This document shows, one piece after another, positions 5,026-31,921 of a stretch of DNA of 35,146 nucleotides. The number at the start of each line of letters is the position of its first letter. Position 1 is the stretch's first letter. Source of the DNA: a virus (lineage: Duplodnaviria; Heunggongvirae; Uroviricota; Caudoviricetes); IMG/VR virus record IMGVR_UViG_2909309443_000004; one strand, 5' to 3'. The position numbers were made by a program, and so were the translations under genes. Under the pieces are notes generated by a model. That model ran no database searches. It had not been told where the DNA came from and saw only the letters and a list, made by a program, of their open reading frames with translations.

Positions 5026-5102
5026 TTACCGTTGAGGTAATAATTATGCTTATTTGGTTTGGTGTCAATAGATATGAGTTAAAAAAATTACCCGTAAGGT
5101 AA
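5026..5102. promoter_or_regulatory. OL-like operator pair: TTACCGTTGAGGTAA (5026-5040) and TTACCCGTAAGGTAA (5088-5102)
   Basis: Two perfect 5-bp inverted half-sites separated by 5 bp, located between repressor gene terminator and start of leftward early operon. Confidence 0.55.
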
Positions 5103-5159: not shown

Positions 5160-5744
5160 TTATTGTTTGCTTTTTTCGTTCTGGTTGATGACAAATTCAA
5201 TGTAACTTTCGATCTTTGCCTTCTCTGTTTCAGGTAACAATGCGTAGCGCGAGCGGTCATAGTTGATAGTCGCGGGGTCGTGCGGGTGAATCAGTAATTC
5301 ATATCCGTGACGCCCAAATGCGGATGCAACATTCTCCAGGGTGGAAATGGAAACGCTGACCTCATTGTTTAACAGGCGGCTGATTGTTACCTGGGCGACG
5401 CCGGATGCGCGGTGAAGTTTTCCCTGCGTTGAAAGGTCGCGGCTTTCGCTCATCCAGCGTTCCAGGTTGTGAGCCGCCAGTTGACCAATGTCGCTTGGTC
5501 CGACAGGCTGAAAACCTTCCTGAGAAAGCGAGCGATCGATATCAAGCCAGTTACGGGGTTTATTGGCGGCAGCTTCAATTTTTCGCGCAACCTGGTCGCC
5601 GATAACCTTCTTGCCAAGAGCCCAGCGGTTTACCAGATTTGCCTGAGTTCCAAGTTTTTCAGCCATCCGCGTCTGAACACCATTGAATTCACGGTCGATC
5701 AAGTCGTTGAGATTTTGCCTGCGGACGTCCTGGATACTTTTCAT
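5160..5744 (-). CDS. Prophage repressor (CI-like), HTH protein without recognisable S24 peptidase domain
   Basis: 194-aa ORF divergent from Cro-like gene; two HTH-like segments (GVQTRMAEKLGTQANLVNRWALGKK and LHRASGVAQVTISRLLNNEVSVSISTLENVASAF); no Ala-Gly/Ser-Lys LexA-like cleavage module evident. Confidence 0.7.
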   Translation of the reverse strand: MKSIQDVRRQNLNDLIDREFNGVQTRMAEKLGTQANLVNRWALGKKVIGDQVARKIEAAANKPRNWLDIDRSLSQEGFQPVGPSDIGQLAAHNLERWMSESRDLSTQGKLHRASGVAQVTISRLLNNEVSVSISTLENVASAFGRHGYELLIHPHDPATINYDRSRYALLPETEKAKIESYIEFVINQNEKSKQ

Positions 5745-6184: not shown

Positions 6185-6199
6185 GTACCTCAAGGGTAA
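6185..6199. promoter_or_regulatory. Operator-like palindrome GTACCTCAAGGGTAA
   Basis: One-mismatch member of TTACC-N5-GGTAA family, 80 bp upstream of the 6280 ATG. Confidence 0.4.
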
Positions 6200-6279
6200 T
6201 AAAAAACCAAATATGGTTGATCTTTTTTTTGTGTCAGCACAAAATAACCGTAATCCCAATACTAATAACAGGGCTTACC

Positions 6280-6480
6280 ATGGAAATCATTACACGTATT
6301 GATGCCGCAAAGCGCGGACTTAAACGCTACTACACCGGAAAAACATGTAAGCACGGACATGACAGTGAACGCTGGGTTTACAACGGACACTGTGTTGAGT
6401 GCACCATGGAATCAAACCGTCGTATCAGGGCAGAGATTAAGCAGATCATGATTAATTCCTCCCCACAACATTCAAGCTGA
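6280..6480 (+). CDS. Small Cys/His-rich protein (possible zinc-binding regulator), cII position
   Basis: Track ORF 6217..6480 (TTG); likely ATG at 6280 (MEIITRIDAAKRGLKRYYTGKTCKHGHDSERWVYNGHCVECT...); C-x-H-x-H ... C-x2-C arrangement. Confidence 0.45.
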   Translation: MEIITRIDAAKRGLKRYYTGKTCKHGHDSERWVYNGHCVECTMESNRRIRAEIKQIMINSSPQHSS

Positions 6481-7311: not shown

Positions 7312-8093
7312 ACAACGTTTTTACCGCGATACAAAACCGTGACGGAGAAGCCCTTTCTCGCATGTCAGGTTATGAGCATCAGTACACCAACAATGACAAC
7401 GTAGTGAACATGTCAGCAGAGAGGCTTGTTGATGCCCTTTTCAAACAGTTGAAACAACTGTTTCCGGCGGCAGTGGTAACCAACCTGAAGACGCCAGAGC
7501 AGGAAGTTGCTGCAAAACAGCAGTGGATTGCTGCGTTTGCCGAAGGGGGGATCCGAACCCGTGAACAGGTTTCTGCTGGTATGCGCCACGCCCGCGCCAG
7601 TGAATCTCCGTTCTGGCCGTCGCCAGGGCAATTTATCAAGTGGTGTAAAGACAGCAAGATGGTTCTTGGCGTCACCATTGACGATGTGATGGCGGAGTTT
7701 CACCGGTACAGCAAGGAAAAAAGTTTATATCCTGGTGGTCCCGAAAGATTCCCGTGGCGGCATCCGGTTATGTACTGGGTCGTATGTGATACACGCCGTG
7801 CAATGTATCAGCGCCAGCTTAGCGAGATTGAGGTTGAGAAACACGCGCGCAGGCTGCTCGATGATTGGGCGAAAAAGGTGGCTTCCGGACAGCAGATACC
7901 CGATCCGGTGATCAGCATACAGGCAAAGCCAGAGCCCATGAGTACGCCTCCGGACACAGGGAGAGACGTTTACCATCCACCAGGGCGAAGTTTCGGGTGC
8001 ATGCCTAACGCCGCCACCCTTGGGGGAATAACACCGGCGCAGTGGCTGATGGAGGAATACAGGCGGGGAAAGGCGGCAGGATTTATCAAGTAA
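7293..8093 (+). CDS. Replication protein P-like helicase loader (lambda P family)
   Basis: Segment FPAAVVTNLKTPEQEVAAKQQWIAAFAEGGIRTREQVSAGMRHARASESPFWPSPGQFIKWCKD closely parallels lambda P (..QWVLAFRENGITTMEQVNAGMRVARRQNRPFLPSPGQFVAWCRE..); alternative GTG start at 7308 overlapping O-like stop. Confidence 0.85.
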   Translation: MGGFLVNNVFTAIQNRDGEALSRMSGYEHQYTNNDNVVNMSAERLVDALFKQLKQLFPAAVVTNLKTPEQEVAAKQQWIAAFAEGGIRTREQVSAGMRHARASESPFWPSPGQFIKWCKDSKMVLGVTIDDVMAEFHRYSKEKSLYPGGPERFPWRHPVMYWVVCDTRRAMYQRQLSEIEVEKHARRLLDDWAKKVASGQQIPDPVISIQAKPEPMSTPPDTGRDVYHPPGRSFGCMPNAATLGGITPAQWLMEEYRRGKAAGFIK

Positions 8094-8130
8094 TACCAGC
8101 GCGATAGCGCATTTTTTTACGTCTATATGA

Positions 8131-8207
8131 TTACCTGGAAGGTAATAAAATGTTCTAATCTCTATTGATTTCATGTCTTATGTGGTTTTTAATTACCTAA
8201 GGGGTAA
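8131..8207. promoter_or_regulatory. Operator pair TTACCTGGAAGGTAA (8131-8145) and TTACCTAAGGGGTAA (8193-8207) upstream of 8211 ORF
   Basis: Two perfect TTACC-N5-GGTAA palindromes in 117-bp intergenic region after P-like gene. Confidence 0.5.
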
Positions 8208-8210
8208 ATC

Positions 8211-8523
8211 ATGAGAAAACAGATACAGGCTCTTGGTCGACTCAAAACAGGCCAGATGAACAAAACAGAATCTGCGTATTGCCAGCACCTTGAGCTGCGT
8301 AAACGTGCAGGGGAAATCGCCTGGTATCGATTCACCATCAGTGCCTGCAACACCAGAAGTTCAGGCAGCACCACAGGAGCAGGATGCCGCCGTTGTTGAT
8401 GCCCGCGACGAAGAAACTCGTCGCCGTCGCGCTGCTGCTGGTCGTAGTTCTACGCTGCTTACCGGTTCTCAGGGCGACACATCAACCGCTAATACCAGCG
8501 GTAAAACGCTGCTTGGTCAGTAA
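8211..8523 (+). pseudogene. Probable gene remnant / deletion scar: DUF1064-like N-terminal fragment (8211-~8330) joined out of frame to a Gly/Ser/Arg-rich C-terminal ORF (8290-8523)
   Basis: 8211 ORF begins MRKQIQALGRLKTGQMNKTESAYCQHLELRKRAGEIAWYRF (resembles N-terminus of phage DUF1064 proteins) then loses protein-like sequence; second frame ends ...RRRRAAAGRSSTLLTGSQGDTSTANTSGKTLLGQ; no intact product. Confidence 0.3.
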
Positions 8524-8537
8524 CCGGAGTCATTGAA

Positions 8538-10217
8538 ATGGCGGAAACAACTAAAGAGCGATTGAACAAACAGTTCGCACAACTTGAAAGCGAGCGTCAG
8601 TCGTTCGAGCCGCACTGGCGCGAGTTGAGTGATTACATCAACCCGCGTGGTTCCCGCTTTCTGACTTCTGAGGTCAACCGTAACGATCGACGCAATACAC
8701 GCATTATTGATTCGACCGGGACTATGGCGGCGCGCACTCTCGCCAGCGGCATGATGTCAGGCATCACAAGCCCCGCGCGTCCGTGGTTTCGCCTGGCTAC
8801 GCCAGATCCTGAAATGATGGATTATGGCCCTGTTAAGTTGTGGCTTGAGGCGGTGCAGAACCGCATGAACGATATGTTCAATAAGTCGAATCTCTATCAG
8901 TCGCTGCCGCAGTTATACGGAAGCCTCGGCACATACAGCACTGGCGCAATGGCGGTGCTGGAGGATGACGAGGACATCATTCGTACAATGCCATTCCCGA
9001 TAGGAAGTTACTACCTGGCTAACTCACCTCGTGGCAGTGTGGACACCTGTTTTCGCAAGTTCTCTATGACTGTTCGTCAGCTTGTTCAGGAGTTCGGGCT
9101 AAATAACGTCAGCGAATCCGTAAAAAGCATGTGGGAAAGCGGCACCTACGAGAAGTGGATTGACGTGATGCATTCGGTTTACCCGAACATTGACCGCGAT
9201 ACATCGAAGCTGGATAGCAAGAACAAGCCATTCAAATCGGTTTATTACGAGGTTGGTGGCGATAACGACAAGTTGTTGCGTGAGTCCGGATTTGATGAGT
9301 TTCCAATTATGGCTCCGCGCTGGGAAGTTAACGGCGAAGATGTTTATGGATCATCATGCCCGGGTATGCTGGCGCTTGGAGCTGTTAAGGCATTGCAGCT
9401 TCTCCAGAAGCGCAAGTCGCAGTTGATTGATAAAGCCACCAATCCGCCGATGGTTGCTCCGACTTCCCTCAAGAATCAGCGTGCCTCCCTTCTTCCTGGC
9501 GACATCACGTATATCGATCAGATTACTGGTCAGGATGGTTTCAGGCCTGCTTATCTGGTTAACCCCAGTACAGCAGATTTGGTGGCAGACATTCAGGACA
9601 CTCGTCAAATCATTAACAGCGCCTACTTTGTCGATCTGTTCATGATGTTGCAGAACATCAATACCCGCTCGATGCCTGTTGAAGCGGTGATCGAAATGAA
9701 AGAAGAAAAACTTCTGATGTTGGGGCCGGTTCTGGAGCGTCTGAACGACGAATGTCTTAACCCTCTCATTGACCGCGCTTTCTCGATGATGGTGCGTAAA
9801 AACATGCTGCCGCCACCGCCTGACGCGATGGAAGGTATGCCCCTGAAGGTCGAATACATTTCCGTCATGGCTCAGGCGCAGAAGTCTATCGGCCTGTCCA
9901 GTCTGGCGTCCACGGTTAACTTCATTGGTCAACTTGCGCAAGCGAAACCAGAAGCTCTCGACAAACTCAACGTTGATCAGGCGATCGATGCATTCGCTGA
10001 TATGTCCGGAGTGTCTCCAACCGTCATTGTTCCGCAGGAACAGGTTGAGCAGGCTCGCCAGCAACGGGCACAGCAACAACAGCAGCAACAAATGATGGCG
10101 ATGGGGATGGCGGCGGCACAGGGTGCCAAGACGCTAAGCGAAGCTAAAACTTCGGATCCGAGTGTTTTGTCAGCTATGGCGAATGCAGTTAGTGGTCAGG
10201 GTGGGCAATCACAATGA
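8538..10217 (+). CDS. Portal (head-to-tail connector) protein, T7 gp8-like
   Basis: 559-aa ORF at head of structural module; Gln-rich/Met-Ala-rich C-terminus (QQRAQQQQQQQMMAMGMAAAQGA...) as in T7 gp8; followed by scaffold and capsid genes. Confidence 0.8.
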   Translation: MAETTKERLNKQFAQLESERQSFEPHWRELSDYINPRGSRFLTSEVNRNDRRNTRIIDSTGTMAARTLASGMMSGITSPARPWFRLATPDPEMMDYGPVKLWLEAVQNRMNDMFNKSNLYQSLPQLYGSLGTYSTGAMAVLEDDEDIIRTMPFPIGSYYLANSPRGSVDTCFRKFSMTVRQLVQEFGLNNVSESVKSMWESGTYEKWIDVMHSVYPNIDRDTSKLDSKNKPFKSVYYEVGGDNDKLLRESGFDEFPIMAPRWEVNGEDVYGSSCPGMLALGAVKALQLLQKRKSQLIDKATNPPMVAPTSLKNQRASLLPGDITYIDQITGQDGFRPAYLVNPSTADLVADIQDTRQIINSAYFVDLFMMLQNINTRSMPVEAVIEMKEEKLLMLGPVLERLNDECLNPLIDRAFSMMVRKNMLPPPPDAMEGMPLKVEYISVMAQAQKSIGLSSLASTVNFIGQLAQAKPEALDKLNVDQAIDAFADMSGVSPTVIVPQEQVEQARQQRAQQQQQQQMMAMGMAAAQGAKTLSEAKTSDPSVLSAMANAVSGQGGQSQ

Positions 10218-23050: not shown

Positions 23051-25525
23051 ATGAGACAGGAATGTATACAAGCGGTCCAGCAGGCGGCGCAGCGCACGTT
23101 AACGGCGCGAGAAATACAGAACATTGAAGACCGCATTTATCGAAATATGCGCTCCATTGCTCGTGATGACCCGATGTCGTGGCGACAACTTTCCGAATCA
23201 GAACGGTTGTATCGTGCAGCACAATTGGCATCTGAAGAATTACAGCGAGAAGCGGCATTAAAGAAACGTCGTGTGGCCCTCACTATAGCCGCACGTCAGA
23301 GATTGGATAAATTTATCAATAACTATCAAGGGGCTGATGGGAAACTTGGCGCTCTTAACCGTACTATTGCTTTTAATGCAGACGGTAAATCGAATTTCCT
23401 CTCTGTTGAATCCAGAACAAAAGCCACTCGTGATTATGCATTGAGTCAATTGCAGGAGGCATTTGAAGCAGTTGATCCTCGCTTTTTTGGCCTGTTTGAA
23501 GATGAAGCGGGCGTGCGTGACCTGGTATATGAAATGCGAGGGCAAAATACTGGCAATGCTAAAGCAAGAAAAGGTGCTAAGGCGTGGAGAGAAGTGACAG
23601 ATCTACTTCGCCGCCGGTTTAATGATGCTGGTGGGGACATTGGCTATCTCGAAAACTGGGGGATCCCTCAACATCATTCTATGGAAAAGGTTGGGGCGGT
23701 ATCAAAAGATAAATGGGTTAGCGATGTTATAGGTAAGCTGGATCGCAAATATTATACCCGAGCCGATGGACAACTGATGAACGATGCCGAGTTGTCTGCA
23801 TTTCTTGGAGAGGCTTATAACACGATCGCTACTGGTGGGCTGAATAAGCTTACTGACACCGGAATGCGAATTTCCGGAGCACGTGCTAACCGTGGTAATG
23901 CATCACGACAGATACATTTCAAAGATGCAGATTCCTATCTGCAATATCAGCAACTTTATGGCGATCGCTCTCTATGGGAAATCATGGTCGGTCACCTGGA
24001 AGGTATCAGTAAAGATATTGCACTGGTGGAAACATATGGCCCAAACCCCGATCATGTTTTCCGCTCTCTTCTTGATCAGGTGAAGGCAGAAACGGCAACA
24101 GCTAACCCGAGTAAAACCGGTAGCGTCGAGCGTCTGGCGAACAAAACAGAGAACTTGTACAACTTTATTTCCGGAAAAACACAGCCTGTAGCGAATCCCC
24201 ACATCGCGCGATGGTCTGACAATATCCGCAACTGGCTGGTTGCCAGCAGACTCGGATCCGCGTTGCTGTCATCGTTCTCTGATCTTGGAACCATGTATCT
24301 GTCTGCGAAGGTTACCAACCTTCCAATGAACCAGTTATTTCGCAACCAGCTTGAAGCTATTGACCCAACGAACCGTACTGAGCTTGCGCGGGCGCGCCGC
24401 GCTGGCCTGGCGATGGAATCTCTACTTGGCAGCGTTAACCGCTGGGCGATGGATAATATGGGGCCGTCTGTGTCTCGTTGGGCGGCAACGGCGGTAATGC
24501 GTGCCAGTGGGCTTACAGCATGGTCAGATGCGCACAAGCGCGCCTATGGCGTAACCATGATGGGAAGCCTGGGAGAAGTAGTGTCACGGACACCAGACCT
24601 TCGTAGCCTCGATGACTCTGATTTTCGTATCCTGAAAAGTAAAGGGATTACTGACACAGACTGGAGCGTATGGAAGCTGGCGCAACAGGAGGACTGGGGG
24701 AACGGTAATAATACGATGCTGACACCGGAAAGCATTATGCGTATCCCTGATTCAGCAGTTAAACATCTTGGTGAGCCTGAACGCGTGAAATTTGAGGCAA
24801 TGCGTAAACTGCTCGGTGCCGTAACTGAAGAAGTTGATATGGCTGTTATTACACCGGGCGCACGTGAGCAGATGTTCGTAGGGTCTGGTCTTCAGCGTGG
24901 AACATGGAAAGGTGAATTAACGAGAAGTGTTTTCCTGTTTAAATCGTTCCCTATCTCGGTTGTTATGCGTCACTGGTCACGCGCTATGGGTATGCCGTCT
25001 GCTGGTGGGCGTGCAGCATATATAGCAACGTTTTTAGCAAGCACAACCATGCTTGGTGCTCTTTCCATGCAGATTACTGATCTTATTAATGGGAGAAATC
25101 CAAAGGAAATGACCGGTGACCACATGGTTAAATTCTGGATAAATGCATTTTTAAAAGGTGGCGGGGCTGGGTTGTACGGTGATTTTCTTTTCTCTGACCA
25201 CACTAGGTACGGGAGCGGCGCGCTGGCGTCGATGCTTGGCCCGGTAGCTGGTCTGGTTGATGATGTAGTGAAGATTGCTCAGGGCATACCGTTAAATGCT
25301 GTGGAAGGGAAGAGTGAGCAGACTGGTGGTGATCTGGTGAAGCTGGGGAAAGGTTTGATGCCTGGTGCGAATCTCTGGTACTTGAAGGCGGCTCTCGATC
25401 ACATGATCTTTAACCAGATGCAGGAGTATTTTTCACCAGGTTATTTGCGTAAAATGGAGCAACGTTCGAAGAAAGAGTTTAACCAGACATACTGGTGGCG
25501 ACCACAGGATGTCACTCCGCAATAA
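23051..25525 (+). CDS. Internal virion (ejection) protein, T7 gp16-like C-terminal region
   Basis: 824-aa ORF; C-terminus (..GPVAGLVDDVVKIAQGIPLNAVEGKSEQTGGDLVKLGKGLMPGANLWYLKAALDHMIFNQ..) has the character of gp16-family tails. Confidence 0.55.
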   Translation: MRQECIQAVQQAAQRTLTAREIQNIEDRIYRNMRSIARDDPMSWRQLSESERLYRAAQLASEELQREAALKKRRVALTIAARQRLDKFINNYQGADGKLGALNRTIAFNADGKSNFLSVESRTKATRDYALSQLQEAFEAVDPRFFGLFEDEAGVRDLVYEMRGQNTGNAKARKGAKAWREVTDLLRRRFNDAGGDIGYLENWGIPQHHSMEKVGAVSKDKWVSDVIGKLDRKYYTRADGQLMNDAELSAFLGEAYNTIATGGLNKLTDTGMRISGARANRGNASRQIHFKDADSYLQYQQLYGDRSLWEIMVGHLEGISKDIALVETYGPNPDHVFRSLLDQVKAETATANPSKTGSVERLANKTENLYNFISGKTQPVANPHIARWSDNIRNWLVASRLGSALLSSFSDLGTMYLSAKVTNLPMNQLFRNQLEAIDPTNRTELARARRAGLAMESLLGSVNRWAMDNMGPSVSRWAATAVMRASGLTAWSDAHKRAYGVTMMGSLGEVVSRTPDLRSLDDSDFRILKSKGITDTDWSVWKLAQQEDWGNGNNTMLTPESIMRIPDSAVKHLGEPERVKFEAMRKLLGAVTEEVDMAVITPGAREQMFVGSGLQRGTWKGELTRSVFLFKSFPISVVMRHWSRAMGMPSAGGRAAYIATFLASTTMLGALSMQITDLINGRNPKEMTGDHMVKFWINAFLKGGGAGLYGDFLFSDHTRYGSGALASMLGPVAGLVDDVVKIAQGIPLNAVEGKSEQTGGDLVKLGKGLMPGANLWYLKAALDHMIFNQMQEYFSPGYLRKMEQRSKKEFNQTYWWRPQDVTPQ

Positions 25526-26304: not shown

Positions 26305-26748
26305 TTATTCTTCTTCTTCATCATTAAAAAGCGGATTGTTGTTTCCATCTGATGAAAGGAAAGGTATGTGTTCTCTTGAAAATCCAACAATGACAATTTC
26401 ATTATCATTTTTTGCATAATGAATGCATTCATTAGAATGCATTCCGCCAGGGTTGAAATTTAAGTTAATGGTATAATTCTTAAATGTGTTTGGATACCAT
26501 GTTGGCCCACAATGATAATGCCAATAATTCTCTTGCTCATAATTGTCTGAGCCTGGAATTTTATCATGGTTATCATCAACCCACGAGGGCTTGTTTTTTC
26601 CAACAAGCGCCCTTCCATTGGCAACATCCTCTAAAAACCTTTGTATGATTTTTATTTCATCATCAGTAAGGAAAGGTCCGTCTACAGCGAAAGGGGTGTT
26701 GCTTTCCCCATGTAGAAAACTATTAGATATTCTAATGTTAAACTTCAA
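26305..26748 (-). CDS. Unknown AT-rich moron protein with acidic C-terminal tail (147 aa)
   Basis: TTG start 7 nt after AGGAG; markedly lower GC than surroundings; His/Cys cluster (YWHYHCGP...HSNECIHY) and terminal FNDEEEE; no recognised family. Confidence 0.55.
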   Translation of the reverse strand: MKFNIRISNSFLHGESNTPFAVDGPFLTDDEIKIIQRFLEDVANGRALVGKNKPSWVDDNHDKIPGSDNYEQENYWHYHCGPTWYPNTFKNYTINLNFNPGGMHSNECIHYAKNDNEIVIVGFSREHIPFLSSDGNNNPLFNDEEEE

Positions 26749-26948: not shown

Positions 26949-26963
26949 TTACCTTTAAGGTAA
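26949..26963. promoter_or_regulatory. Operator palindrome TTACCTTTAAGGTAA overlapping promoter of 26936<-operon
   Basis: Perfect TTACC-N5-GGTAA; upstream (minus-strand sense) TTGGCG ... TAATAT hexamers at -35/-10-like spacing. Confidence 0.5.
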
Positions 26964-27029: not shown

Positions 27030-27749
27030 TCAGAAGAACCCTGCCTTGTCGTTGATGTACTCCGCGTGGGTCTGGATATCACGCAGGCATTTGCTCACAC
27101 CGACGATGTAGCAGAACATGGTGGTCAGTTCCGCCGCCGCGCCCGATACGTCATGCCCGTCTTCCTGTAACTGGTTCAGCAAATTCATCAGCAGTGAGTT
27201 CTCCGTCAGGCCGAGAACACCAGACGGTGAATGAATCAGGCTACGGTAGCCGGGCTTCAGTGGGGCGCTGTAGGTTTTGTTCTCTATCTTCATTGCCTGC
27301 ATCACTGCTGATGCTGTGGCGTTGGCTACCTGGTCGGCAACCATCTTTATGCGTTCTTCTTGCGGGAGCGAGTTTTTAATGTAACTTCCGGTGCGGCGGA
27401 TCTGAGGAAGAACCTCACCTGTAACCCATTTACGAAAGCGGTATGGGATAGTGCCTGGTGTCACCGCATCGCGGCAGCGGAGGATCAGTGTGTAGAGGCC
27501 TGACTCGTTGATAATATTGGTTTCGCCTTGACGGCCTAAGTTAAATTTAGCCCTTTCATCATCATCAAGAGATTTTATTGACATAGTGGGGTTTGTCAGT
27601 TGAAGAGCTTTAATAACGTCTTTGGCAACAAACCAAGGATTAATCGCAAATCCAACTCTCCTCAGAGTTATAACGCTCAAACGCTTTACACATACTTTGT
27701 GTTGGTGCTGGAGGGCGTTCAAGGGCAGCCATGACTTGCTCCCAAACAT
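27030..27749 (-). CDS. Bro-N-like antirepressor-type protein with C-terminal domain paralogous to 28868..29125 product
   Basis: Track ORF 27030..27758; Bro-N-like segment GFAINPWFVAKDVIKAL...SGLYTLILRCRDAVTPGTIPYRFRKWVTGEVLPQIRRTG; C-terminal ~90 aa share clear similarity with ORF 28868..29143. Confidence 0.6.
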   Translation of the reverse strand: MFGSKSWLPLNALQHQHKVCVKRLSVITLRRVGFAINPWFVAKDVIKALQLTNPTMSIKSLDDDERAKFNLGRQGETNIINESGLYTLILRCRDAVTPGTIPYRFRKWVTGEVLPQIRRTGSYIKNSLPQEERIKMVADQVANATASAVMQAMKIENKTYSAPLKPGYRSLIHSPSGVLGLTENSLLMNLLNQLQEDGHDVSGAAAELTTMFCYIVGVSKCLRDIQTHAEYINDKAGFF

Positions 27750-27924
27750 CCTCTTCAACGATCAAGCGGCGATGTTCATTAATAACTGTTTCAGCTCTAA
27801 AAGTCGTAGACTCCATTACAAATTGAGATACGGACACTTTAGAAATAACAGCAGCTTCTTCGATACGGCGCTTCGCAGCTTCGGGCAGACGAAACTCGAA
27901 CCGCTCCTTTCTTACTGCGTTCAT
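27640..27924 (-). CDS. DUF1778-like ribbon-helix-helix protein (TacA-antitoxin-like / Arc-like regulator)
   Basis: Track ORF 27640..27948 (GTG); ATG 27924 lies 5 nt after AGGAG; sequence MNAVRKERFEFRLPEAAKRRIEEAAVISKVSVSQFVMESTTFRAETVINEHRRLIVEEDVWEQVMAALERPPAP fits DUF1778 RHH pattern; no GNAT toxin partner present. Confidence 0.6.
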   Translation of the reverse strand: MNAVRKERFEFRLPEAAKRRIEEAAVISKVSVSQFVMESTTFRAETVINEHRRLIVEEDVWEQVMAALERPPAPTQSMCKAFERYNSEESWICD

Positions 27925-27988
27925 AACAACTCCTGAGCTAATGCTCACAGTGGTTTATACCACATAACGATATGCACGGTACGGGAAT

Positions 27989-28096
27989 TTACCGTACAGG
28001 TAATGATAAGCGCGAAGAAATATTAAAATCAACCTTATTTGGTTGATTGCGTTTAACGCTTGATCACCTGAAAGCAAGATATTACCTTTAAGGTAA
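27989..28096. promoter_or_regulatory. Operator pair TTACCGTACAGGTAA (27989-28003) and TTACCTTTAAGGTAA (28082-28096) in divergent promoter region
   Basis: Two perfect palindromes between divergent RHH/Bro-N operon and membrane zinc-ribbon gene. Confidence 0.5.
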
Positions 28097-28116
28097 TGTT
28101 ATTGTGAGGAAAAGCA

Positions 28117-28845
28117 ATGGAAGTTTTCTGGATAGTTGTTGGTGTGGTTGCGGTGATTATTTACGTTATCAACCAGAACAAGACTAAGATCTCTGATCGT
28201 ACGGTCGTTAATCATAACAAAACGATAAAGACCGAAGATGGGGAGATAACGATTAATCGTACACAGGTGATAGAACACACCTCTACTCAGTTTCAAAAAA
28301 CTGGAGGTAATGCGCCTAATATTTCCGCACCTCCTGCTTATGATAGTGCGGTAATCCAGACATATTATAAACAGCAGGAGTTAGCAAAAGAGAGGCAACT
28401 GATTCAGCCAAAGCCGTTTACAACTGAGATTCCACCTGGAGTGTCAACGCGTCCGGCATATCATGGAAGATTCCCTGGTGATGACATATCGTCTCAGTCA
28501 TCTAAAAAAGCACCTCAGGCAATATCAGAGCCAGCAAGAATACCTTCTGTATCGCCGCAAAAAGAAGAATCAGCTAACAGAGTTTCAAGTGGTAGCAAGC
28601 AGTGCTTGCGATGCAGAATAAACCTTCCATATGAAAAATTCAGGAAATCGTCAAAAAATCCAGATGGATTGACTAAATGGTGTGCAAGGTGTCTCGATGG
28701 CCCAAAGAATACACGCCATATGAAGTGGTGCCCAATTTGTAATGTCCGCAGAAAACGAACCAGCTTTTACCCTAATAATCAAAATGCGGACGGCTTAATG
28801 GCATGGTGCAAAACGTGCTGGGATGAGCACAAAGCGAAACGATAG
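28117..28845 (+). CDS. Membrane-anchored protein with duplicated C-terminal zinc-ribbon motifs, function unknown
   Basis: 242-aa ORF; N-terminal TM helix (FWIVVGVVAVIIYVI), long low-complexity linker, then two repeats CLRCRINLPYEKFRKSSKNPDGLTKWCARC and CPICNVRRKRTSFYPNNQNADGLMAWCKTC. Confidence 0.6.
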   Translation: MEVFWIVVGVVAVIIYVINQNKTKISDRTVVNHNKTIKTEDGEITINRTQVIEHTSTQFQKTGGNAPNISAPPAYDSAVIQTYYKQQELAKERQLIQPKPFTTEIPPGVSTRPAYHGRFPGDDISSQSSKKAPQAISEPARIPSVSPQKEESANRVSSGSKQCLRCRINLPYEKFRKSSKNPDGLTKWCARCLDGPKNTRHMKWCPICNVRRKRTSFYPNNQNADGLMAWCKTCWDEHKAKR

Positions 28846-28867
28846 GCCGCTCTTGCGGCCTTTAAAT

Positions 28868-29125
28868 TTACCGGGTTTGTTTTCGTAATTGTTCGGCACA
28901 ATAGTCGAGATGTGTTTGCAGATCCCGCATAGACATCTGTGAGCTGGTGACGTAGTTAATCAGTGCAGTCAGTTCGGCAAGTGGGCCATCGACATTAAAT
29001 CCATCCTTATCGAGATCCCGGAGTAATTTCATCAAGTGCGATCCCTCCACCAGTGACCTGACGCCTCCCGGCGTGTGAATCCTTTCGGTAAATCCGTCTT
29101 CCAGTGGATAGTGATACCGCTGCAT
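28868..29125 (-). CDS. Small protein paralogous to C-terminal domain of Bro-N-like protein
   Basis: Track ORF 28868..29143 (TTG); ATG at 29125 with GGAG RBS; ..LMKLLRDLDKDGFNVDGPLAELTALINYVTSSQMSMRDLQTHLDY.. aligns with ..LMNLLNQLQEDGHDVSGAAAELTTMFCYIVGVSKCLRDIQTHAEY.. of 27030 gene. Confidence 0.55.
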   Translation of the reverse strand: MQRYHYPLEDGFTERIHTPGGVRSLVEGSHLMKLLRDLDKDGFNVDGPLAELTALINYVTSSQMSMRDLQTHLDYCAEQLRKQTR

Positions 29126-29201
29126 CTTATCTTCTCCATGCAATAACTGTATATTTATACAGTATCAAATAATTTGTTTGCTATCCAGCACGTTTTGCAA
29201 A

Positions 29202-29320: not shown

Positions 29321-31921
29321 ATGACGGTCTCAACCGAAGTTGACCACAACGAATACACCGGTAACGGCGTTACGACATCATTTCCGTATACCTTCCGTAT
29401 TTTCAAAAAAACCGACCTGGTTGTTCAGGTGTCTGATCTGAACGGGAACGTAACAGAATTGGTTCTGGATACCGGTTATAAGGTAACTGGAGCGGGCACT
29501 TATAGTGGCGGTGAAGTGGTTCTCCCGTCGCCGCTTGCTGCTGGCTGGCGAATTACGATAGAGCGTGTGCTTGATGTGGTGCAGGAGACTGATCTTCGCA
29601 ATCAGGAAAAATTTTTCCCCGAAGTTCATGAAGATGCATTTGACTACCTGACGATGCTGATCCAGCGATGTTTTGGGTGGTTCAGACGTGCATTGATGAA
29701 ACCCTCGTTGCTTGCAAAATATTACGATGCAAAGCAAAACAGAATATCTAACCTTGCTGATCCATCACTTGAGCAGGACGCTGTAAATAATCGCTCAATG
29801 CGTAATTATGTCGATGCTGCAATCGCCGGGGTTGTTGGTGGTTTTGGTTGGTTTATTCAGTATGGTTCTGGAGCAGTATACCGAACGTTCCAGGATAAGA
29901 TGCGGGATGAAGTAAATATTCGTGATTTTGGAGCAGGAGATTCAGGTGAAGTTACAGATGCTATTTTGAAGGCTGTTGCAGCTACTAATGGCACCATTAT
30001 TATCCCGGATGGAAATTATGTTTCTACTCCAACAGTAACGCAGACTCCGAACGTTATGAAATTGCTTTCACGAGCAGAGTTTAGAGGTTCTTTGACCATC
30101 AATCTTCCTGTTGGAACTGTTAACCTATCAGAAAAGACGCTAATCAGATCACAAAATGTTCATAAACTTTCTATTTCTGGTATTACGTATTCAACTACGC
30201 TAACTGGCTTAGTGGGTGTATCTGGTATCCCCAAATCATACCTAGTTACGCTCTCTCTGGCTGATGCTTCAAACGTTTCTGTAGGCGACGTCGTGATGAT
30301 TCGTCACGATATAACGGGGACAGGAGGATATCACATCCATTGTGGCGGATGGGTTGTGACTGCCGTGTCTGGCAAAAATGTTACCGTAAAAAACACCTGC
30401 CACCTGTCTGAATTACCAACGTCAACGATTACAGGCGGAACAGTAGTCATACTAAAAAGTATTCTGAGATATGCCGGATGTGATGGGATTGTGGCTGCAG
30501 GTGCTGGGTGCATTAAGACAATAAACGGTGTCGCAATTGTTGGTGATTATGACCTTGTGGCCGGCACTGGAACTATTGGTGCGCATGGTTTCTCCCTCAC
30601 TACTCCAGACATTACTGTTGCCATCCCAGACCCATCCAACGTGGTTTTTGATGCGTCAGGATGTATAGCAATTGGGCCTGATCTGGCGATCGTTGGGTTC
30701 GGAGAACAGGGGGTCGTGGCTTCAGAAAGATCTGGTGTGGTTTCAAACTTTATATCTTCATGCTCTAACCGCAAGCGCGGTGTATATTCTGAAGGCGCTC
30801 ATATACGCGGTAAATTTATGCTTTGCTCAGGGAATGGTGAGGATGGGATTATTGCTGATATTGGTGGCGCAATACAGGCTAACGGATCAGTTTGCTCTGG
30901 CAATGGGTTGAATGGGTTCTGGTCTTTTAATCATAGTTTTTTGGGGGCACCAGGGGGGATTGCGTGCGGTAACTATACCAATGGTGGTGAATCACGCGGA
31001 CCAGGTGCATTAAATCTGCAAAATGGGAAGAGCTATTTAAACAGGCTAATTGGTGTAACCGCTTCAAATAGCGGTGCAGTTATTTTCACTAACTCAACTG
31101 CCACACAAAATGGCACGGATGGTCTGGTTGCTGTTTACGATGGCTTAATATCTGCCGCCAATGCCAATTCAACGAGCAACGGTCGCTATGGGGTTAACGT
31201 AACTCACGCAAAAATTGTGCTTAAAGGCTCTGGAGGAGTGACTGGTAACACAACGGGAGATTACATCGATAACGGCGAGGGCACAATAATCAAGCCAGAT
31301 GGTACTATGCTGCCGAGGAATGCTGGCCCGCAAAGCATCCTTTCTATTCGTAACGCCAATCTTTCCGGTGCTGATGTCACGGCATCATCAATAGGCGATC
31401 TCACCGTCTCGCAAAGAAACACATCCTCGGGTGCATTAACCCCCCTGTATGTATTCAAATCTGACGGAACCCAGCATCCAGTCAATGACGCCACGCAGAA
31501 CCTTGGCAGGGCAAGCAATCGCTACAATGTTGGTTTCTTCGCTGGCGGAACACAGTCAACTTCAGATGCCACACTTAAAGACCCTATCCGGGAGTTCAAT
31601 CAGGCCGAACTCAATGCAGCAATGCGCATCTCGAAAATGTTTGGATTCTGGACGTGGCTTGATGATGACAGTAAGCGTTTGCATGCAGGGACTACGGTTC
31701 AAGCAGTGTTAGCTGTTCTGGAAGAGGAAGGTCTAGACTGGCGGAGCTATGGATTTATCTGTTTTGATGAGTGGGATGATGAATATACCCCGGTAACCAT
31801 TGAGGTAGATGGCGAAGTCGTTGAAACTGGCGAACTGCAATTAGTACGTGAGTCTGGTTCTGTATGGCAATTACGCGATCAGGAATTTGACAGATTCGTG
31901 ATGCGTGGACTTTCCGAATGA
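29321..31921 (+). CDS. Tailspike protein: T7 gp17-like N-terminal anchor, central beta-helix-like receptor-binding/depolymerase region, C-terminal intramolecular chaperone (peptidase S74-like)
   Basis: 866-aa ORF; N-terminus MTVSTEVDHNEYTGNGVTTSFPYTFRIFKKTDLVVQV typical of podovirus fibre/spike anchor; Gly/Ser/Asn-rich repetitive middle; C-terminal S-D-A-T-L-K autoproteolysis-like motif followed by conserved chaperone block. Confidence 0.8.
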   Translation: MTVSTEVDHNEYTGNGVTTSFPYTFRIFKKTDLVVQVSDLNGNVTELVLDTGYKVTGAGTYSGGEVVLPSPLAAGWRITIERVLDVVQETDLRNQEKFFPEVHEDAFDYLTMLIQRCFGWFRRALMKPSLLAKYYDAKQNRISNLADPSLEQDAVNNRSMRNYVDAAIAGVVGGFGWFIQYGSGAVYRTFQDKMRDEVNIRDFGAGDSGEVTDAILKAVAATNGTIIIPDGNYVSTPTVTQTPNVMKLLSRAEFRGSLTINLPVGTVNLSEKTLIRSQNVHKLSISGITYSTTLTGLVGVSGIPKSYLVTLSLADASNVSVGDVVMIRHDITGTGGYHIHCGGWVVTAVSGKNVTVKNTCHLSELPTSTITGGTVVILKSILRYAGCDGIVAAGAGCIKTINGVAIVGDYDLVAGTGTIGAHGFSLTTPDITVAIPDPSNVVFDASGCIAIGPDLAIVGFGEQGVVASERSGVVSNFISSCSNRKRGVYSEGAHIRGKFMLCSGNGEDGIIADIGGAIQANGSVCSGNGLNGFWSFNHSFLGAPGGIACGNYTNGGESRGPGALNLQNGKSYLNRLIGVTASNSGAVIFTNSTATQNGTDGLVAVYDGLISAANANSTSNGRYGVNVTHAKIVLKGSGGVTGNTTGDYIDNGEGTIIKPDGTMLPRNAGPQSILSIRNANLSGADVTASSIGDLTVSQRNTSSGALTPLYVFKSDGTQHPVNDATQNLGRASNRYNVGFFAGGTQSTSDATLKDPIREFNQAELNAAMRISKMFGFWTWLDDDSKRLHAGTTVQAVLAVLEEEGLDWRSYGFICFDEWDDEYTPVTIEVDGEVVETGELQLVRESGSVWQLRDQEFDRFVMRGLSE

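Follow-up and report, generated by a model that had tools for sequence, protein, structure and literature searches.

The DNA analysed here, hereafter the window, is a stretch of 35,146 nucleotides (nt) from the virus record IMGVR_UViG_2909309443_000004 (IMG/VR, Caudoviricetes). It represents a complete epsilon15/phiV10-like (Uetakevirus-type) prophage of Escherichia coli, bounded by the integrase gene (1-1251) at one end and by the lysis cassette and the host gene yfgI at the other. The subject of this study is a gene located at 28117-28845 on the plus strand, referred to below as the target gene, whose product of 242 amino acids (aa) combines a predicted N-terminal transmembrane (TM) helix, a linker and a C-terminal pair of putative zinc fingers. 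An earlier note on this DNA, made from the sequence, had delimited an open reading frame (ORF) at exactly this position, and both a Shine-Dalgarno motif and the conservation of the “ME(V/I)FW” N-terminus among homologues agree with this delimitation. The gene and the segments of its product are the following.

28106-28110, plus strand: Shine-Dalgarno motif GAGGA, 6 nt before the ATG, read from the sequence
28117-28845, plus strand: coding sequence of the 242-aa membrane-tethered tandem zinc-finger protein (ORF; PHROG 6762; RefSeq WP_044316654.1, “hypothetical protein”)
28123-28185, plus strand: N-terminal TM helix, aa 3-23, predicted N-out/C-in from AlphaFold2 (AF2), hydropathy and flank charges
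28186-28287, plus strand: juxtamembrane segment, aa 24-57, NQN(K/R)TK...TIKTEDGEIxIxRTQV, recognised by its conservation and modelled by AF2 as a low-confidence beta-hairpin
28288-28590, plus strand: variable disordered linker, aa 58-158, with a predicted local distance difference test score (pLDDT) below 50 over most of its length
28597-28698, plus strand: zinc finger 1, aa 161-194, with the invariant cysteines C163, C166, C189 and C192
28723-28824, plus strand: zinc finger 2, aa 203-236, with the invariant cysteines C205, C208, C231 and C234, matched by endoVII, HNH and “Lar-like” PHROG families

A conserved accessory gene encoding a probably membrane-tethered protein

The ORF at 28117-28845 is a genuine, selected phage gene. 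PHROG 6762, of unknown function, covers the full-length protein (E 1e-148), and 33 homologue clusters from Enterobacterales (90% identity level) align with it from end to end. The ORF is intact in 54 of the 54 E. coli-type viral contigs of IMG/VR, which carry 38 alleles. The ratio of non-synonymous to synonymous substitution rates relative to the window allele is about 0.2-0.5 for the more divergent alleles, and exceeds 1 for some alleles with very few changes. Almost all the allelic amino-acid changes fall in the linker, the finger domain of the E. coli-type copies holding just three variable positions. E. coli FORC_031 and further genomes of the enterotoxigenic E. coli type contain the target region with 100% identity. 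It is carried by 158 of the 5426 complete E. coli genomes and is 96% identical in phage TL-2011b. In this phage (L001, JQ011317.1), positions 7772-8860 are labelled in GenBank and RefSeq as a misc_feature “similar to hypothetical protein”. A pseudogene was considered for this copy and rejected, as the ORF is intact (L062, 96% identity over residues 1-242) and the label thus reflects an annotation gap.

Sixteen phage records share the neighbouring small-gene/tailspike DNA, among which the target gene is present only in the two TL-2011b records, and alignment at the equivalent site of phiV10 revealed no trace of it. A deletion scar in phiV10, where a misc_feature and a terminator occupy this site, was also rejected: the alignment shows no similarity and the gene is simply absent. 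Being missing from most of the records that share its flanking DNA and from phiV10, the target gene is accessory, and it can be described as a real, conserved “moron” gene of temperate phages. Its family is unannotated, being of unknown function in PHROGs and hypothetical in RefSeq, with no model in PADLOC or NCBIfam and no paper found. A scan of the whole window against Rfam gave no matches.

Conservation divides the protein into three zones, with aa 1-57 and aa 159-242 highly conserved, the latter with eight invariant cysteines, and aa 58-158 variable in sequence and in length. Structure prediction, which the earlier note had recommended, was carried out with AF2 on the full protein using the family alignment, and gives both a confident TM helix and a confident finger domain. 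The single N-terminal TM helix that had been anticipated is recovered at aa 3-23 (pLDDT ~90, hydropathy 2.7), with V7, G9 and V11 invariant across homologues. The linker of ~130 aa that had been described behind it is not a single element: it consists of the conserved juxtamembrane segment (aa ~24-57) and of a variable, disordered part of ~100 aa. P, Q, S, T and N make up 45% of the latter, which in other family members can be as short as 7 aa or as long as 107 aa. In the family alignments, N21, T39 and G42 of the juxtamembrane segment are invariant or nearly so, and AF2 places there the two strands of a hairpin (29-39 and 42-52) at a pLDDT of ~50. The C-terminal finger domain exceeds a pLDDT of 90 in the full model and averages 88.9 when modelled alone. 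The conservation of the TM/juxtamembrane segment goes beyond what a mere anchor would require, which suggests self-association or a membrane partner.

According to the prediction, the product is bitopic in the inner membrane: one or two residues remain outside the cell and the zinc fingers face the cytoplasm. One or two residues precede the TM helix in the window protein, and the flank following it has a net charge of +2. Among 46 family members, the N-terminal flank comprises 0-5 residues of zero or negative charge, the 15 residues that follow the helix have, on average, a positive net charge, and the charge of the C-terminal flank is higher than that of the N-terminal flank in 37. The N-out/C-in prediction is based on the positive-inside rule and on the need of Cys4 zinc sites for a reducing compartment. 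A periplasmic finger domain was judged unlikely, considering the lack of a positive N-region, the short N-terminal flank, the positive C-terminal flank and the eight cysteines in zinc sites. The finger domain itself is very basic, with a mean net charge of +13.5 over 82 aa in the same 46 members and of +14 in the window protein.

The finger pair and its relatives

Both fingers are CxxC...WCxxC units, and the protein ends 6 residues past finger 2. The earlier note had seen in them two near-identical zinc-ribbon modules of ~30 aa. The two units and their eight invariant cysteines are confirmed, but they are identical at only 12 of 34 positions (35%), and the zinc-ribbon assignment has to be abandoned on the basis of the model. 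In the AF2 domain model, the first CxxC of each finger lies on a beta-hairpin and the second one spans the end of a strand and the first turn of a helix. Such a position of the second CxxC, at a strand-to-helix junction, points to a treble-clef-like fold (Stc1/LIM/HNH-associated) rather than to a classical two-knuckle zinc ribbon, in which both CxxC pairs would sit on beta-hairpin knuckles.

The sole Pfam match of the protein is Stc1 (PF12898; 21.1 bits, E 4.9e-4), below the gathering cut-off of 24.8 bits, and the top Foldseek match in the Protein Data Bank (PDB) is the tandem finger of Stc1 (2LUY; E 3.7e-3, probability 0.90), with a high root-mean-square deviation and a different orientation between the fingers. 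The eight invariant cysteines, the pLDDT of 88.9 and the match to 2LUY together describe two tandem Cys4 fingers with a Stc1/LIM-like fold. A sequence search of the PDB gave only a weak match to PacI (E 0.25). The structure search of BFVD returned 40 significant matches, mostly viral HNH, EndoVII and beta-beta-alpha-Me nucleases as well as “Stc1 domain” phage proteins. Likewise, PHROG families annotated as endoVII, HNH, endonuclease and “Lar-like” align to the fingers, the nuclease families doing so at their N-terminal finger regions only. The accessory Cys4 module CxxC...DGLxxWCxxC of HNH/EndoVII nucleases is therefore present in the window protein; no Pfam HNH, HNH_5 or Endonuclease_7 match, nor the catalytic beta-beta-alpha-metal motif, was found on its 242 aa.

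An exhaustive phmmer search for homologues of the finger domain (aa 154-242) retrieved 918 proteins, which form two classes. The first one consists of ~45 clusters (50% identity level) with the same membrane-tethered architecture, and the second one of soluble proteins with 3-10 tandem copies of the finger. Among the 98 soluble relatives scanned, Stc1 passes the Pfam threshold in 46 (best E 3e-18), these passing relatives having more repeats, while Endonuclease_7 is found in 15, HNH in 12 and HNH_5 in 11, with Bro-N, KilA-N or helicase domains in a few of them. The homology search that the earlier note had called for thus revealed no well-known housekeeping domain: the finger module is associated with mobile elements and nucleases.

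The comparison with these relatives reveals likenesses and differences. Stc1, which bridges Ago1 and the CLRC complex (PMC2875855), also has two consecutive Cys4 fingers, but it is a soluble fission-yeast protein with neither a membrane anchor nor a phage context. In the arrays of HNH, EndoVII and beta-beta-alpha-Me nucleases of phages and giant viruses, including the zinc sites of PacI and Hpy99I, the fingers are N-terminal to a nuclease domain, whereas the window protein has no catalytic domain, only two modules and a membrane tether. Literature searches on the Stc1 domain in phages and bacteria and on superinfection exclusion by membrane zinc ribbons found nothing relevant, and nothing was found that establishes the biochemical role of the module in HNH/EndoVII enzymes, whether DNA binding, structural or protein contact. 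Nucleic-acid binding by the fingers is plausible, because the module is shared with phage HNH/EndoVII nucleases and the domain is very basic. The finger domain is ~30-60% identical across phages with unrelated repressors and anti-repressors, and one family member is found in a myovirus-like prophage. This conservation across unrelated repressors, anti-repressors and virion morphotypes suggests that the ligand of the fingers is probably generic, either nucleic acid or a conserved host component.

Immunity operators and genomic context

The earlier note had also attributed to the target gene its own promoter bearing an operator, and the region upstream of the gene does contain putative sigma-70 elements overlapped by a palindromic operator.

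28060-28088, plus strand: putative sigma-70 promoter read from the sequence, with a -35 TTGATC (28060-28065), a 17-nt spacer and a -10 TACCTT (28083-28088), missed by a stricter consensus scan
28081-28097, no strand: perfect palindromic immunity operator ATTACC-N5-GGTAAT over the -10, from the motif count in the window
27989-28003, no strand: second operator copy, found by motif search in the divergent intergenic region, at the predicted leftward promoter of the ribbon-helix-helix (RHH)/Bro-N genes
5160-5744, minus strand: cI-like immunity repressor with two helix-turn-helix (HTH) modules and no S24 domain (Pfam HTH_3 and YdaS-like HTH; flanking operators)

The window contains 11 copies of the motif TTACC-N5-GGTAA (at 5026, 5088, 5800, 5848, 6185, 8131, 8193, 26949, 27989, 28082 and 29202), where 0.6 would be expected. 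The copies at 5026, 5088, 5800 and 5848 flank the cI-like gene, and copies are also present between the cI-like and cro-like genes. Those at 8131 and 8193 precede late/terminase genes, and those at 26949, 27989, 28082 and 29202 are located in the accessory block, one of the copies lying ahead of the tailspike gene. In the Pectobacterium locus L009, which has 13 sites, the same motif borders the homologues of cI and cro and is found ahead of the target homologue as well, and it is on this basis that the motif is identified as the immunity operator. The cI-like repressor likely binds the operator at the target promoter, and a single repressor seems to act directly on many separate transcription units, forming a P1-C1-like multi-operator regulon as opposed to a single early cascade. 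A minus-strand promoter-like site, TTGATT-18-TATCAT, is located at 28032-28003. The arrangement TTGAxx-16/17-TACCTT within the operator recurs in Serratia, Pectobacterium and Enterobacter/Citrobacter/Salmonella-type loci, and the Providencia homologue displays TTGAAT-17-TAACCT inside a different palindrome (TTAACC-N5-GGTTAA).

The centre of the operator lies just 28 nt upstream of the ATG, so it is not an upstream activator site and its occupancy should repress. An activating role for CI, such as that of O_R2 at lambda P_RM, was rejected on the same ground: with the Shine-Dalgarno motif in between, the operator must overlap the core promoter or the leader. As a perfect immunity operator overlaps the -10, the target gene is probably silent in stable lysogens, and its expression in this lineage probably occurs right after infection or upon derepression and induction. 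According to overexpression experiments in a related Uetakevirus, lytic transcription is blocked by the repressor, and the anti-repressor encoded near the tailspike gene drives the phage towards the lytic cycle (PMC9782041). Most of the Enterobacter/Citrobacter/Salmonella-type loci (L080-L085) have a further palindrome, TGTGACATGTCACA or variants such as TGTGACGTGTCACG, ~74 nt ahead of the target homologue and just past the upstream terminator. Its sequence is similar to CRP half-sites, though with a 4-nt spacer, and the E. coli window has no copy of it.

The ~45 clusters of the same architecture are spread over the Gammaproteobacteria and lie without exception in immunity regions. In Serratia, Providencia, Pectobacterium, Superficieibacter, Edwardsiella, Acinetobacter and Enterobacter/Citrobacter/Salmonella-type contigs, the homologue is located in the epsilon15-like block between the ejection-protein and tailspike genes, and the same anti-repressor-linked slot was found in Haemophilus and others. 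In epsilon15-like loci, it mostly runs antisense to these ejection-protein and tailspike genes, and its neighbours are Bro-N, pRha or KilA-N/ANT anti-repressors, HicAB and a small gp19-like gene. In Acinetobacter (L013), it follows an Arc-type RHH gene in an operon-like pair, divergent from a KilA-N gene. Elsewhere the homologue lies directly 3' of an HTH-Peptidase_S24 cI gene on the same strand, as in Marinobacterium (L020), Neptunomonas (L021), the L096-L103 group and Aeromonas phage phiARM81mr, with a gap of 15-20 nt that contains the ribosome-binding site. Unlike in the window lineage, expression should take place in lysogens where the gene is part of a cI operon. In phiARM81mr, a leftward Cro is followed by rightward CI, the homologue and, further on, the early-left genes for exoVIII and RecT, so that the homologue occupies the lambda rexAB slot. 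The homologue is convergent with cI and abuts it in three loci (L017, L019 and L105), and in another one (L018) a hairpin separates the two. The next genes in the Marinobacterium and Neptunomonas loci (L020 6654-7307 and L021 8544-8966) encode secreted, staphylococcal-nuclease (SNase)-like proteins, judged from the N-terminus only (a signal peptide then GKVVKVSDGDTI...). The marine cI-proximal region may be a small cluster of accessory nucleic-acid-directed genes.

In the window, the target gene belongs to a variable block between the ejection-protein genes (end at 25525) and the tailspike gene (start at 29321), which also carries the following features.

27030-27758, minus strand: Bro-N anti-repressor of the divergent operon, its ORF overlapping the RHH gene (Pfam Bro-N, E 7e-18; PHROG anti-repressor families; RefSeq annotation)
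27640-27948, minus strand: DUF1778/TacA-like RHH gene of the divergent operon (Pfam TacA1, E 3e-19; RefSeq annotation)
28844-28861, no strand: GC-rich hairpin terminator common to the target gene and the convergent small gene, AGGCCGC-TCTT-GCGGCCT then TTAAATTT
28868-29143, minus strand: convergent small gene of 85-91 aa, epsilon15 gp19-like, PHROG 450, with a RefSeq start at 29125 (context only)

As previously noted, the target gene is convergent with a small gene, and the two share the hairpin. The product of this small gene is a paralogue of the Bro-N protein C-terminus (44% identity over 72 aa, E 3e-16). This small gene adjoins the tailspike gene in most of the epsilon15-like relatives. 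A near-consensus LexA (SOS) box is present at 29145-29164 (AACTGTATATTTATACAGTA), with one mismatch to TACTGTATAT-NN-ATACAGTA and none expected by chance, 20-39 nt upstream of the RefSeq start of the small minus-strand gene. Considering that the cI-like repressor has no S24 cleavage domain, the small gp19-like gene may be a SOS-inducible anti-repressor triggering induction. The TacA-type RHH “antitoxin” is an orphan, without a GNAT toxin partner, located directly upstream of the Bro-N gene and overlapping it. By analogy with P22 immI, the RHH protein may be an Arc/Mnt-like second repressor, acting on the anti-repressor. Two other ORFs were noticed. One encodes 147 aa with an acidic C-terminal tail (26305-26748, minus strand) and has no Pfam, PADLOC or NCBIfam match; in L080 and L082 its homologue immediately precedes the target homologue in the same orientation, making it a possible but inconsistent companion. 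The other one, of 87 aa (6217-6480, plus strand), lies just past cro and is preceded by the operator copy at 6185. It has a CxxGH...CxxC motif (RYYTGKTCKHGH...GHCVEC) and no Pfam match, and by its sequence it would be a different small zinc-binding phage protein.

Possible functions of the tethered fingers

We tentatively favour, from context and by analogy, a membrane-tethered nucleic-acid binder that would act on DNA at the inner membrane and exclude or abort phage infection. The TM helix and the juxtamembrane hairpin would anchor the protein in the inner membrane, and the floppy tether of ~100 aa would carry the basic Cys4 finger pair in the cytoplasm, where it could bind nucleic acid near the inner face of the membrane, the site of phage DNA entry. 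Capture of incoming phage DNA would block its establishment, in an exclusion-type outcome; alternatively, clustering of the TM segments would damage the membrane, in an abortive-infection-type outcome. In the relatives with the gene after cI, the protein would be made in lysogens, and in the window prophage mainly just after infection or induction, when it would protect a cell committed to this phage. The place of the gene would suit a factor for prophage exclusion or abortive infection: relatives follow cI closely in the rexAB slot or lie beside anti-repressors in a P22 immI/sieA-like region. The window gene is also in an immI-like region, but the operator overlaps its promoter.

The closest functional precedent would be AbiP of Lactococcus and PdpSau of Staphylococcus aureus prophages, in which a TM helix at the N-terminus is combined with a nucleic-acid-binding cytoplasmic domain of positive charge, and which cause abortive infection with membrane permeabilisation (PMC10127798). 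The anchor and the charged cytoplasmic domain are both predicted in the window protein (helix 3-23, net charge +14), and these systems resemble it as single-gene accessory proteins of mobile elements or prophages with a matching predicted topology and charge. They differ by the domain, which is OB-fold-like in AbiP/PdpSau and modelled as a tandem Cys4 treble-clef-like pair in the window protein, by their hosts and by their genomic linkage, pdpSau being linked to lysis genes and the window gene to the immunity region. No sequence relationship to the window protein was found for AbiP/PdpSau, nor a PADLOC match, and the protein would be an analogue of this class and not a homologue. RexAB, P22 SieA/immI and lactococcal Sie2009 share with relatives of the window gene a slot beside repressor genes, and the product of the window family is predicted to be membrane-associated. 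In P22, the order sieA-mnt-arc-ant places an exclusion gene by ant-type genes, as in the slot of the family between ejection-protein and tailspike genes. These proteins have no sequence or fold similarity to the window protein and are devoid of zinc fingers.

The exclusion or abortive effector put forward in the earlier note is partly supported by the cytoplasm-facing prediction, the basic nuclease-type module and the rexAB/immI-like position, and several points weigh against it. The promoter is under an immunity operator instead of being constitutive, and in this lineage the target gene is probably repressed in the stable lysogen, unlike classical sie/rex genes. Scans of the 242-aa protein with PADLOC and NCBIfam gave no match. 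The profile search with the N-terminal TM and hairpin module retrieved only truncated fragments of the same family and no fusions to other sensor domains, providing no backing for an effector-plus-sensor design. The strong basic charge could instead reflect binding to acidic phospholipids, and zinc sites similar to these are partly structural in PacI and Hpy99I. DNA binding is moreover not assured, as the fingers of yeast Stc1 bind Ago1 and such modules can mediate protein-protein contacts (PMC2875855). A bolder version of the proposal, which we consider doubtful, is that the homologues constitute an undescribed family of single-gene exclusion or abortive factors of temperate gammaproteobacterial phages, located in the rexAB slot or in an immI-like region, whose nuclease-derived fingers would fish incoming DNA and whose TM/juxtamembrane segment would be the effector.

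An organising role for the DNA of the phage itself appears unlikely. The protein would then be expressed early and tether the incoming or replicating genome to the membrane for replication, circularisation or protection of its ends, as proposed from the resemblance to phi29 p16.7. The latter, an early protein, is anchored in the membrane by its N-terminus and has a cytoplasmic binding domain at its C-terminus, past a spacer, a layout comparable to the TM helix, spacer and basic domain of the window protein, with no homology implied. Two points agree with such a role: with the immunity repressor in control of the promoter, expression is expected as soon as infection or induction takes place, and the finger module derives from DNA enzymes. 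Nevertheless, the gene is accessory, phiV10, ZX5 and PAS61 lacking it despite having the same replication and structural modules. It is never found in the replication module; immunity and moron regions are where it lies, in many cases antisense to the late genes around it, and its probable co-transcription with cI in several lineages would imply expression in the lysogen while the phage is not replicating. p16.7 itself has a helical DNA-binding domain, and its gene lies with those for replication and other early functions in a lytic Bacillus phage.

Host takeover or anti-defence is, in our estimation, rather improbable. The tethered fingers would early on sequester at the membrane a conserved host protein or RNA, for which a nuclease or restriction component (Lar-like), a nucleoid-associated factor or a division factor would be candidates. 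Finger 2 matches PHROG 5558, annotated as “Lar-like restriction alleviation protein” (E 1.8e-9), but this label is an annotation only and the Lar family of Pfam is not matched. The N-out anchor, the P/Q-rich tether and the cytoplasmic binding domain also reproduce the layout of ZipA, which binds FtsZ, a likeness in topology only and without homology implied. The predicted early, repressor-controlled expression fits this role, as does the conservation of the domain across hosts, which is compatible with a conserved host ligand, and yeast Stc1-type fingers are protein-interaction modules (PMC2875855). The cI-operon placement in several lineages argues, on the other hand, for a function in the lysogen.

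A regulator of the lysis-lysogeny switch, holding the repressor, the anti-repressor or a co-factor of the phage at the membrane and sharpening commitment, is very improbable: the gene invariably adjoins cI, Arc-type RHH or anti-repressor genes, shares in the window a divergent operator-controlled region with the RHH/Bro-N operon and belongs to phages related to a Uetakevirus in which anti-repressor-driven induction was shown experimentally, but close relatives achieve lysogeny and induction without it (PMC9782041), and its fingers keep their identity despite unrelated repressors (two-HTH or HTH-S24) and anti-repressors (Bro-N, KilA-N, pRha or none nearby), so that a specific phage-encoded ligand is unlikely and an interaction with the own repressor or anti-repressor of the phage was down-weighted, such partners being non-homologous across the family.

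If the protein is indeed a tethered nucleic-acid binder directed against phages, it would represent a compact single-gene anti-phage factor present in ~3% of the complete E. coli genomes, and the same factor would be carried by prophages of Serratia, Pectobacterium, Providencia, Edwardsiella, Yersinia, Aeromonas, Acinetobacter, Haemophilus and marine Gammaproteobacteria. It would also provide a first function for the very common “Stc1-type” module of phage HNH/EndoVII nucleases, and would imply that the AbiP/PdpSau principle of an anchor joined to a basic nucleic-acid binder arose independently, with a different fold, in phages of Gram-negative bacteria. Should this reading prove wrong, the immunity-region linkage and the repressor control of the target gene would still place it in the lysis-lysogeny or early-infection programme, which is poorly understood in epsilon15-like podoviruses.

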